The notes under the pieces were generated by a model. The model saw nothing but the letters and a program-made list of their open reading frames with translations, searched no databases and was not told where the DNA came from. Both the position numbers and the translations under genes were made by a program. DNA of 64,000 nt from a phage, in sequence record OZ317122.1; one strand, written 5' to 3'. Below are positions 10,340-30,572 of this stretch, one piece after another (the stretch's first letter is position 1; every line of letters begins with the position of its first letter).

Positions 10340-10810
10340 TTAATCATGTTTCCACACCCCATCGGTATTTGACCAAAGTCGCTGATTATCTGATCCTCGC
10401 CACAGCTTTTTAGTCGGAAGATTTTTCTCATACTTCCCATCAATAATAACATCAACATATTTAAGCATTTCTAGCTGTTTAATATCTTCAAACTTATATC
10501 CTGTCCACAACCAAATGCTTTTATTGGGATAAAGATTTTTAATAGTTTGAACCACAGAGTGAATCACGTCTCTGTTATCAGGATAAAGAGGGTCTCCTCC
10601 AGTTATAGTTAATCCTTCTATATAATCATTATTCAAACATTCAATTAATTGTTCTAGTGTTTCACCAGTGAATGGAACGCCATTTCTAGCGTTCCATGTT
10701 GATTTATTATAACACCCTTCACATTTATGCAAACAACCTGTAACGAAAAGAACGACCCTGCATCCAGGGCCATTCACAAAATCGCAAGGATAAAATCTAT
10801 CATAATTCAT
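10340..10810 (-). CDS. nrdG: anaerobic ribonucleotide reductase activating enzyme (radical SAM)
   Basis: 156 aa; CLHKCEGCYN cluster; ATG overlaps nrdD stop (ATGA). Confidence 0.85.
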   Translation of the reverse strand: MNYDRFYPCDFVNGPGCRVVLFVTGCLHKCEGCYNKSTWNARNGVPFTGETLEQLIECLNNDYIEGLTITGGDPLYPDNRDVIHSVVQTIKNLYPNKSIWLWTGYKFEDIKQLEMLKYVDVIIDGKYEKNLPTKKLWRGSDNQRLWSNTDGVWKHD

Positions 10811-12679
10811 TGGTGTTTAACCCTATGCATGATTTCTTTATTTTTGCCGAGATTAAATCCACGTTCGTTCGGATTTCCCAAATAACCACAAGTTCTTCTT
10901 ATTGTGTTCATCTTTTTAGGATCAGTTTCTCCACAAATAGAACAAACAAACCCGTTTTCAGTAGGAGTCATTTCATGGGTACTTCCACACGTAAAACATT
11001 TATCTACTGGCATGTTAACACCAAAATAATCTAAATGTTGTGCAGCATAATCCCAGACAGCCTCAAGACCTTTTAGGTTATTTTTCATATCAGGAAGTTC
11101 AACATAAGAAATGTGACCACCTGTCGCAATGAAATGATATGGCGCTTCACGAGAAATTTTTTCAAACGGAGTAATATTTTCTTCTACTGAAACGTGGAAA
11201 CTATTAGTGTACCAGCCTTTATCGGTAACATCTTTTACACTTCCATATTTTTCTGTATCAAGTTTACAGAAGCGATAACAAAGGTTTTCAGCAGGAGTCG
11301 AATATAAACTAAAAGCAAATCCAGTTCTTTCAGTCCACTGTTTAAGATGAGCATTCATTTTAGTTAAAATTTCTTGTCCAATATCACGACCGACAAGAAT
11401 ATTCAATTCGTGAATACCAATGTATCCTAGGGACACTGAACTTCTACCATTTTTAAATAACTCAATTATATCGTCATCAGGTTTAAGACGAACCCCGAAT
11501 GCACCTTCTTGGTAAAGAATAGGAGCAACAGTCGCTTTAACTCCTTTTAAGGAACTAATTCTACACATCAAGGCTTCAAAGCACAGATCCATTCGTTCAT
11601 TAAATAGCTCAACAAATTTCTGTTCATTGAACTGTGTTCCAATATAAGAATCTAATGCGATACGAGGAAGATTCAGTGTTACAACACCGAGATTATTACG
11701 TCCATCAAGAATTTCATTACCAGTCGAATCTTTCCATACGCTCAAGAAACTACGGCAGCCCATCGGAGAAACAGGAATAGATGAACCAGTGATAGCTTTA
11801 TTGTTCTTAGCTGAAATAATATCAGGATACATCCTTTTGCTTGCACACTCTAGAGCAAGCTGCTTAATATCATAGTTCGGATCGTCTTTATAAAGATTAA
11901 CACCTTCTTCAACGAACATAACAAGCTTAGGGAAAATAGGAGTTATCCCATCACGACCGAGACCTTTAATACGATTTTTCAGAATTGCTTTCTGAATCAT
12001 TCGTTCAGTCCAGTCAGTTCCCGTACCAAATGTAATTGTTACAAAAGGTGTTTGCCCGTTTGAACTAAAGAGAGTATTTACTTCATATTCATAAGCTTGA
12101 AATGCATCGTATACGTCTTTTTCTGTTTTAGATTGAGCATAATTCAACGCATCGGCGATTTGCCATTTTTCTGCATCCTCAATATGTTTTGCATAGGTGC
12201 GTTTAACATAAGGAGAAAGTACTTTATCTACATTCGCAAAAGTCGTTCCGCCGTATTGGTGAGAAGCAACCTGTGCAGTAATTTGTGCCATAATTGCAGT
12301 AGCAACGCCAATTGATTTAGGAGTTTCAATCTGTGCATTACCTAGCTTAAATCCGTTTTCAAGCATTCCTTTTAAATCTACTAAACAACAATTAGTAAAT
12401 GGAAGAGCAGGGGAATAATCAATATCATGGAAATGAATAATTCCGCTTTCATGCGCTTTCATAATAAAAGTAATCAATATCATGGAAATGAATAATTCCG
12501 CTTTCATGCGCTTTCATAATAAAAGACGGGACCATATTTTTGGCAATGTGTTTAGACACAATACCAGCCATAAGGTCCCGTTGAGTTGGAAAAACACGAG
12601 AATCTTTATTAGCATTCTCGTTTAAAAGGTCTTTATTAGTTTTATGAATCAATCCTTCAATTTCTTTTTCAATTGTCAT
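10807..12679 (-). pseudogene. nrdD: anaerobic ribonucleotide reductase nrdD, frameshifted by a 55-bp tandem duplication
   Basis: 76-aa N-terminal ORF (12449..12679) and 566-aa ORF (10807..12507) share duplicated peptide FIMKAHESGIIHFHDIDY; removing one copy gives one 605-aa frame ending in glycyl-radical and Zn-ribbon motifs. Confidence 0.85.
12416..12525. repeat. perfect 55-bp tandem direct duplication (12416..12470 and 12471..12525)
   Basis: taatcaatatcatggaaatgaataattccgctttcatgcgctttcataataaaag occurs twice back to back; 55 is not a multiple of 3. Confidence 0.95.
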
Positions 12680-14662: not shown

Positions 14663-14905
14663 TTATTCCTTAATTCCTAGTACTTGTTTAAAAGTCTCGT
14701 CGTAATCAAGACTTTGGCCCGTTTGTTCTTTATGTTTGTATATAATATCACTTACTTCTGATAGCATATTTTTATATGAACGAGTTAAAGCAGATTTAAG
14801 CACGCTGTATCTATCAGGAAATTTACCATGTTCATTATAATAAGCTATTGCTAATTCACGGACTGCCTTTTCAGCAGTCTCCATATATTCTTTACGCTTT
14901 GTCAT
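14663..14905 (-). CDS. hypothetical protein
   Basis: Trimmed to ATG at 14903-14905. Confidence 0.4.
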
Positions 14906-15206
14906 TTTCTTCTCGGTCAAATCGGTGTTTACAATGGCGACATTTATAACGAAGAATACTAGTCTGCCAATGAATCAATTGAACCTGTTCAGTTCCACAT
15001 TCAGGGCAATTAGGAACGTTTTTAGAAGCCCTTTCACGACGTTCAACCATGACCATTACAGAATCCCAATTAACAGGAGGGCTATAATCATCACAACCAT
15101 AAATCTTTCCACGCATTTCCATATCATCTTCCTCACCAGCCATAATAATTTTAATTAGACTAGAATTACTTGAAGCTGCAATGTCTTCTAATAGACGCTT
15201 TTTCAT
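14892..15206 (-). CDS. zinc-ribbon protein
   Basis: 104 aa; CPECG ... CRHCKH Cys pairs. Confidence 0.45.
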
Positions 15207-29470: not shown

Positions 29471-29730
29471 AATTTATTCATAGACTTTGAAACTTCTGCA
29501 CGAACCTCATGTAGATTTTTGAGCTGTTCAAGACGCTGCGTATAGTAAGCAATTTCATCTTCTTCGAGACAGTCCTGTGAATCTTCTTTAAGATACCGTG
29601 CATAGTCCTGGAAAGCGTTACGGACTACTTCCTGGAAGTCATCAAGACTTTGAATTTTCTTAGGAGCAGCAGACACACGACGAGGGGCAGTATAATACTC
29701 ATAACCAAACCCTGCGCTTAATTGAGCCAT
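29452..29730 (-). CDS. hypothetical protein (vs.3 position)
   Basis: Trimmed to ATG at 29728-29730, overlapping upstream stop. Confidence 0.4.
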
Positions 29731-29996
29731 TAGTATTTTTCCTCTGGTTGGAACACAGCACGACAAGCCCACATACTGGCTTCTTTGAGTTTCGTTTTAG
29801 CAATAGCTAACTGATCGAGGCTTTCAGCATAATTCTTCGCGAGTTCAAAGTCTTCGCAATTATCTAGTGCTTCCCAGAATTCATCATATAAAGCATCAAA
29901 GATAAGTCCTAAACGAACTTCAGCGTCTTTAATAGCATTTACTTTACCGATTTTTTCGTCGGTATGTGGCTTATAACCTTTAATATCTTCAATCAT
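29730..29996 (-). CDS. small acidic protein at vs.4 position, candidate Acb2-like cyclic-nucleotide sponge
   Basis: 88 aa from ATG at 29994-29996; assigned only by gene order between regB and denV (fourth of six vs-position ORFs). Confidence 0.4.
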
Positions 29997-30210
29997 ATTT
30001 GACTTCCTCACCAGTACATAAATCGTATTCAACTAAACGAATAGGTTCATGAATGCCATATCCCTGAACAGAAATTTCTGTCGTAGGATAAATTCCACTA
30101 ATATCACCCATATTCCACGCTTCATTAAATTGCTGTTCGCCTGAATTACTAAACCACTCGGCGAAAGCATTTAGCACATCTTCAGAACCTTCAATAATTA
30201 TCTTTGCCAT
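29989..30210 (-). CDS. hypothetical acidic protein (vs.5 position)
   Basis: 73-aa ORF, ATG start. Confidence 0.45.
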   Translation of the reverse strand: MAKIIIEGSEDVLNAFAEWFSNSGEQQFNEAWNMGDISGIYPTTEISVQGYGIHEPIRLVEYDLCTGEEVKYD

Positions 30211-30572
30211 TACAAACTCTCGGTGAAGGTACGAGCGATAACGTCGCGCTGCTGTTCCGGAGTCAGAGAGTTAAAGCGAACTGCATAACCGGATACACGG
30301 ATGGTCAGCTGCGGATATTTTTCCGGATGCTTAACTGCATCTTCCAGAGTTTCACGACGCAGAACGTTAACGTTCAGGTGTTGACCACCTTCAATTTTAA
30401 CTGTAGGCTGTTGCTCAATTTCAATTTCACGGGCATGCAAACCATAGAAAATTTCTGGGTCTACAAAAGAGTCCTCTTTAAAGGTTTTAGAGACAATAAT
30501 TCGTGCTTGAATACCATCTTCAAAATAAATAGTACCTTTATGTGTGCCTTCAAGAATTTGATATGCTTTCAT
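30210..30572 (-). CDS. autonomous glycyl-radical cofactor protein (GrcA/YfiD-like)
   Basis: C-terminal [61 protein letters not shown] with RVSGY glycyl-radical signature. Confidence 0.85.

Follow-up and report, generated by a model that had tools for sequence, protein, structure and literature searches.

An exact 55-bp tandem repeat that splits nrdD in a T4-like phage sequence is probably an untrimmed assembler overlap

The nrdD locus and its two open reading frames

The DNA analysed in this study (referred to below as the window) is a stretch of 64,000 nucleotides of the phage sequence record OZ317122.1, which represents a Tequatrovirus, i.e. a T4-like phage of Escherichia coli. The minus strand of the window carries nrdD, the gene for the anaerobic ribonucleotide reductase, in which a segment of 55 bp is present twice. 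As 55 equals 3 x 18 + 1, the duplication looks like a frameshift in this gene. The locus comprises the following features, given in window coordinates:

10807..12679, minus strand: the whole of nrdD, 1873 nt long as given and 1818 nt (605 codons and a stop) minus one copy of the repeat
12449..12679, minus strand: 76-aa ORF, composed of NrdD residues 1-70, six out-of-frame residues (FYYESA) and a UGA stop
10807..12507, minus strand: 566-aa ORF, composed of 13 spurious residues followed by NrdD residues 53-605
12416..12470: copy 1 of the repeat, 55 bp (TAATCAATATCATGGAAATGAATAATTCCGCTTTCATGCGCTTTCATAATAAAAG on the plus strand), located downstream in the mRNA (minus strand)
12471..12525: copy 2 of the repeat, 55 bp, located upstream in the mRNA and coding for NrdD residues about 52-70
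12457..12485: the new junction resulting from the duplication (...CATAATAAAAG/TAATCAATATC...), at which the end of an assembler contig is proposed to have been joined to its start

The 29-mer across the junction reads TTTCATAATAAAAGTAATCAATATCATGG, and the outer boundaries of the duplicated array are GGGGAATAATCAATATC and CATAATAAAAGACGGGACC. At the protein level, the truncated product would be recognizable by the peptide ...DIDYFYYESA and a frameshift product by ...FYYESAHESGIIHF....

The 76-aa ORF ends in ...FIMKAHESGIIHFHDIDYFYYESA, directly followed by the stop, and matches the Pfam family NRDD at its positions 1-53. The 566-aa ORF begins with MKAELFISMILITFIMKAHESGIIHFHDIDYSPAL... and matches NRDD at positions 28-562, as well as the Gly_radical domain. 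Both ORFs contain FIMKAHESGIIHFHDIDY; they share 59 nt, and no other element separates them. A preliminary description of this DNA, made from the letters alone, had already reported that nrdD is broken into 76-aa and 566-aa ORFs and that deletion of one copy yields a 605-aa protein with its glycyl-radical and ribbon motifs intact, and both statements were borne out by the ORF coordinates, the Pfam searches and an alignment with a T4 NrdD structure (PDB 1H78). When one copy is removed, the resulting protein of 605 aa matches NRDD over its full length together with Gly_radical, and is approximately 99% identical to the crystallised T4 NrdD (1H78 and related entries), with which it aligns over residues 1-605. 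Substitutions relative to the T4 enzyme are few, and the glycyl-radical motif RRTCGYLG and the CxxC...CxxC ribbon are aligned in the restored protein.

Anatomy of the 55-bp repeat

Tandem Repeats Finder identified 12416..12525 as a single array, with a period of 55, 2.0 copies, 100% matches and no indels. Direct string comparison of 12416..12470 with 12471..12525 revealed two identical 55-mers that abut without any spacer. The perfect tandem duplication first noted from a comparison by hand is thus confirmed at all bases.

The boundaries of the unit allow no sliding to either side: the base preceding the array is A, versus G as the last base of the unit, and the base following it is A, versus T as the first base. 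The array therefore consists of exactly two copies, with no partial third one, and the flanking microhomology is 0 bp on both sides. When random 55-mers of the window are joined to themselves, an extension of 0 bp is the commonest outcome (54%), and at least 2 bp are obtained in only about 18% of cases. The lack of flanking microhomology, as well as the identity of 55 with a standard assembler k-mer length, had been missed in the preliminary description.

The repeat is far beyond chance, the 29-nt junction stretch occurring once in the window and in none of 100 shuffles. It is the only exact tandem duplication with a period of 12-400 within the 64-kb window, and no other with a period of at least 11 was found in the window and approximately 365 kb of related T4-like DNA, the sole lesser case in the latter being one 10-bp repeat. 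Each 55-bp copy also holds a small natural tandem repeat, CGCTTTCATG x1.9 (12444-12462 and 12499-12517), which encodes the MKAHESG region; it is a normal part of the nrdD sequence and has no relation to the 55-bp period.

Genomic context

The best public match of the window over 25 kb is to phages fHoEco02 and fFiEco06 (97.6%), and the nrdD region is 99.9% identical to that of phages G29, G4500, AV119 and AV120; the window as such is absent from the collections searched. The gene order is canonical: gp46, gp47, a-gt ... nrdG, nrdD, gp49, pin, nrdC ... tRNAs ... baseplate genes ... gp17. Ten other proteins of the window were also searched for; four of them are absent from the collection and the remainder are common to many phages.

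Among the approximately 86 ORFs (at least 80 aa) shared with fHoEco02, NrdD alone is split. Three other ORFs were flagged in this comparison, and they represent two truncations at the window edges and a natural length variant of NrdC.2. A generally error-prone assembly was rejected as an explanation, since no other ORF of this set is frameshifted. With nrdD as the sole broken gene of this set and the repeat as the sole exact tandem duplication, the picture fits a single faulty join in an assembly that is clean elsewhere.

The NrdC.2 homologue (14892-15206, minus strand) has 104 aa, compared with 129 aa in fHoEco02 and several relatives, and its identity to the longer form is only about 80% over 99 residues. 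The short form is also present in three further loci (L001, L007 and L008), which identifies it as a natural allele and not an error.

In the window nrdD is devoid of an intron and nrdG directly follows it (10340-12679). In T4, nrdD is interrupted at the equivalent of 12087/12088 by a group I intron (1035 nt, with I-TevII), and mobC lies between nrdD and nrdG. Phage 132 (MZ417521) has an intact nrdD and, between nrdD and nrdG, a SegD-like gene that is missing from the window; for these two reasons it was rejected as the origin of the window sequence. Such differences (the nrdD intron, mobC and the SegD-like gene) are the usual mosaic presence or absence of homing elements.

A further observation concerns three genome-length T4-like metagenome contigs, which come from three independent assemblies; one is a scaffold, one a MEGAHIT k119 contig and one a SPAdes NODE contig. 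They all end 4.13-4.21 kb past the same side of the locus, at a site that corresponds to about 30260-30350 in the window, near vs.5/vs.6 and the ORF 30210..30572 (minus strand). No large repeat is visible in the window near this site. The shared opening site may reflect a polymorphic site, or a graph branch caused by resemblance to glycyl-radical genes of the host. At about 29730-30572 (minus strand), related loci encode a stand-alone Gly_radical domain protein of 120 aa (vs.6-like), downstream of which lie a 73-aa gene and then a gene for an 88-aa protein with the Pfam domain Acb2_Tad1_hairpin. The vs.6-like and Acb2_Tad1_hairpin genes both belong to the known accessory genes of T4-type phages and have nothing to do with the repeat.

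Relatives and public collections

All relatives examined have a single copy of the 55-bp segment. With a query of 2101 nt around nrdD, all 40 phage matches listed span 2046 nt, i.e. 55 fewer, and with a query of 181 nt all the phage matches listed span 126 nt. The 14 loci that were fetched, as well as T4, have one copy each. Ten genome or metagenome loci encode a 605-aa NrdD, and each of them, when aligned to the window, shows a break precisely at 12470/12471 and an overlap of 55 nt in the subject. The same break is seen with phage 132, fHoEco02, an IMG/VR contig, a metagenome contig and T4, and the 605-aa NrdD lies at the same position in the relatives. Minus one copy, the window reproduces the sequence of every relative examined.

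The junction itself was searched for in five collections (phages, IMG/VR, genome_contigs, metagenome_contigs and ecoli_genomes). A 50-nt junction query had no match among 50,697 phage records or 20,395 E. coli genome records; as this query comprises 25 nt from each side, genomes with a single copy are unable to seed a megablast hit. A 38-nt junction sequence was absent from IMG/VR, from 185,579 species genomes (genome_contigs) and from JGI metagenome contigs (metagenome_contigs). Neither the exact 76-aa product nor the exact 566-aa product is present in the exact-protein index of gene calls. A window-specific 40-mer located 300 nt from the junction was found in two relatives, one from IMG/VR and one from a metagenome, which are 96-98% identical and single-copy, and was not found in genome_contigs; a second 40-mer was not found in IMG/VR.

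Switch, bypass, frameshift and split-enzyme readings

A frame broken by two identical copies could in principle be a functional arrangement, i.e. an on/off switch operated by recombination, hopping of ribosomes over 55 nt as in T4 gene 60, a -2 frameshift, or an NrdD made in two pieces. We regard such an arrangement as highly improbable. Recombination between the copies would restore nrdD precisely, and the preliminary description had for this reason considered a reversible switch. This idea presupposes that the duplication is present in the phage, yet the junction was found in none of the five collections and the products of the two ORFs are not among the indexed gene calls. In one version of the switch the duplication would be physically present and metastable, with nrdD off in the sequenced majority and recombination restoring the gene under anaerobic need; full-length NrdD might then leak through a -2 slip at A_GCG_CAU_GA or through ribosome hopping. 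The likelihood of this version seems to us equally slight.

The motif A_GCG_CAU_GA precedes the 0-frame stop, and a -2 shift at this place would enter the frame of the 566-aa ORF. The 76-aa ORF ends with ...AGC GCA UGA (12449-12460, minus strand), where the Ala codon GCA overlaps a GCG located 2 nt upstream. This overlap, at which tRNA-Ala would slip by -2 from GCA to GCG before the UGA, is a sequence coincidence created by the duplication. Moreover, the product of such a frameshift would gain about 18 residues at positions 52-70 of a highly conserved enzyme.

Bypassing in gene 60 depends on take-off and landing codons that match, a stop directly behind the first of them, a take-off stem-loop and a nascent-peptide signal, and its take-off codon is GGA. 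At the present locus the first element is provided trivially, since every codon of the unit, GGA included, recurs 55 nt downstream. The codon after GGA, however, is AUU and not a stop, and the first in-frame stop (UGA) lies six codons past the junction. In addition, a 146-nt mRNA segment has a minimum free energy of -24.6 kcal/mol versus a shuffle mean of -24.7 kcal/mol (z = 0.04), and an equal or better fold is reached by 102 of 200 shuffles. Bypassing of the gene 60 type was rejected on the basis of codon context and folding, and with it the analogy that had been drawn, more speculatively, between the two genes; the insert is, besides, absent from the relatives examined.

The absence of the second copy from every relative examined also bears on all these readings, as it leaves nothing that could be considered selected or conserved. 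A two-piece enzyme would have the two ORFs as its parts, but the ATGs of the 566-aa ORF (12507, 12483 and 12462) have no Shine-Dalgarno-like motif upstream, and no homing-endonuclease gene separates the pieces at this site. A link to intron homing was also considered and rejected. The T4 nrdD intron and I-TevII homing site (12087/12088) lies about 330 nt from the repeat, and homing-associated repair is therefore not implicated.

A possible genuine duplication

The repeat might instead be a very recent spontaneous tandem duplication, arising by replication slippage or illegitimate recombination, that frameshifted nrdD and was tolerated during aerobic propagation. The duplication is, after all, present in the sequence as given, the perfect identity of its copies fits a very recent event, and a genuine duplication of 55 bp looks identical in a finished sequence. 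T4 nrdD is dispensable for aerobic laboratory growth, so that a genuine knock-out would be tolerated. A true duplication would be unstable, as recombination between the 55-bp copies restores the gene. It is also known that phages of the T4 type recombine readily and make duplications and deletions (Srikant et al., bioRxiv 10.1101/2022.04.14.488369).

Several observations make this explanation unlikely. T4 duplications and deletions are reported to form at microhomologies of 2-10 bp (6-10 bp in Srikant et al.), and a T4 duplication leaves one copy of the microhomology after the repeat (Srikant et al., bioRxiv 10.1101/2022.04.14.488369), whereas at the nrdD repeat the microhomology is 0 bp. The length of the unit equals an assembler k exactly, a coincidence to be expected about once in 100 for an arbitrary natural length. 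Across the approximately 365 kb of related DNA, no comparable natural duplication was found. The junction is missing from all five collections, and neither ORF product is among the indexed gene calls.

The proposed assembler-overlap explanation

The reading that we favour, with a probability of roughly 85%, is that the 55-bp repeat is an untrimmed overlap of contig ends produced at k = 55, and hence an artefact and not biology. An assembly artefact was one of the options listed in the preliminary description, and it is this option that the present results favour; the on/off switch and the gene 60 analogy offered next to it were left unsupported.

The second 55-bp copy would, according to this explanation, not be part of the phage genome. 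Genomes of T4-like phages are circularly permuted, and short reads derived from them give a circular graph. A de Bruijn assembler outputs such a graph as a linear contig, opened at an arbitrary point, whose first k bases equal its last k bases; with k = 55 the overlap would be exactly 55 bp, and the opening would have fallen within nrdD. If the contig was afterwards rotated, re-opened or wrapped around with the overlap left untrimmed, the sequence would read ...X[55-mer][55-mer]Y.... Alternatively, two graph-adjacent contigs sharing exactly k bases may have been concatenated, or the window may have been cut across the ends of a contig treated as circular. The result of an untrimmed join of this kind would be two perfect tandem copies that lack both a spacer and microhomology.

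By default, the largest k that SPAdes applies to reads shorter than 150 nt is usually 55, and so is that of metaSPAdes.

Overlaps of this kind have precedents in the literature. Terminal repeats in the CheckV paper accumulate at lengths of 55, 77 and 99 bp, i.e. at k-mer lengths, and it was pointed out there that, with a circular template, the assembler breaks the contig at a random place, leaving a repeat of k-mer length at both ends (PMC8116208). According to Ramsey et al. [quoted passage not shown] Had the trimming step been skipped in a workflow of this type, the former ends of the contig would meet as exactly ...X[55][55]Y.... Phage contigs with overlaps of 127 bp have also been published (PMC5923482), and the Phage Annotation Guide names terminal repeats in mid-sequence among the common submission errors (PMC8785237).

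The locus has several features expected of such an artefact: the copies are identical and adjacent, their length is a standard k, the genome is of a circularly permuted type, the relatives examined are single-copy and the junction was found in none of the five collections. The explanation is built on the anatomy of the repeat, its absence from the relatives examined, its uniqueness and the published cases; from these we infer that the source sequence passed through such a workflow. The window is co-linear and on the same strand with the T4 reference, its position 1 corresponding to approximately 31.8 kb of T4, the bearing of which depends on how the window was cut. This co-linearity with the T4 map fits a record that was re-opened to the T4 convention after assembly.

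Significance

If the repeat is an artefact, it is a matter of data quality only. The record then shows a broken nrdD and two spurious ORFs (76 and 566 aa), while the phage almost certainly has an intact 605-aa NrdD, and the genome length is 55 bp too long. Exact internal tandem duplications of length k (55, 77, 99 or 127) could serve as a cheap flag, obtainable from the letters alone, that marks untrimmed joins of contigs in the records of phages, plasmids and organelles, and should be filtered before "split genes" are scored. If the duplication is real, it is an ordinary loss-of-function mutation in a dispensable gene, and wider interest would follow only from a demonstrated switch or bypass.

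Comparison with known systems

The split nrdD resembles T4 gene 60, with its coding gap of 50 nt, in that matching codons flank a stretch of about 50 nt in a T4-type gene and that the frame is restored by skipping, here of 55 nt. It differs from gene 60 in having neither a stop after the take-off codon nor a take-off stem-loop (z = 0.04), and in that the "gap" repeats the neighbouring coding sequence and is missing from the relatives examined. In contrast to ribonucleotide reductases encoded by genes in pieces, no mobile endonuclease gene intervenes, and no Shine-Dalgarno-like motif provides the downstream part with a translation signal of its own.

Duplications formed at microhomologies in T4 (rII, genes 16-18 and dmd-tifA amplifications) share with the nrdD repeat their head-to-tail form, the T4-type genome and reversibility by homologous recombination, and the gene affected here is a dispensable one. 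The documented cases involve microhomologies of 2-10 bp, usually extend over hundreds of bases to kilobases and arose under selection, whereas the present repeat has 55 bp, a microhomology of 0 bp and no evident selective benefit.

The terminal overlap of assembler k-mer length (k = 55, 77, 99 or 127 for SPAdes and metaSPAdes) normally takes the form of direct repeats, one at either end of a contig, whereas here the copies are adjacent and located in the interior. Compared with the usual overlap, the interior position would require an extra step, namely rotation, re-opening, wrap-around or concatenation without trimming. In other respects the two are alike: the length is exactly k, the template is circularly permuted, the break point is arbitrary (here inside a gene), and the removal of one copy gives the sequence of the relatives examined.
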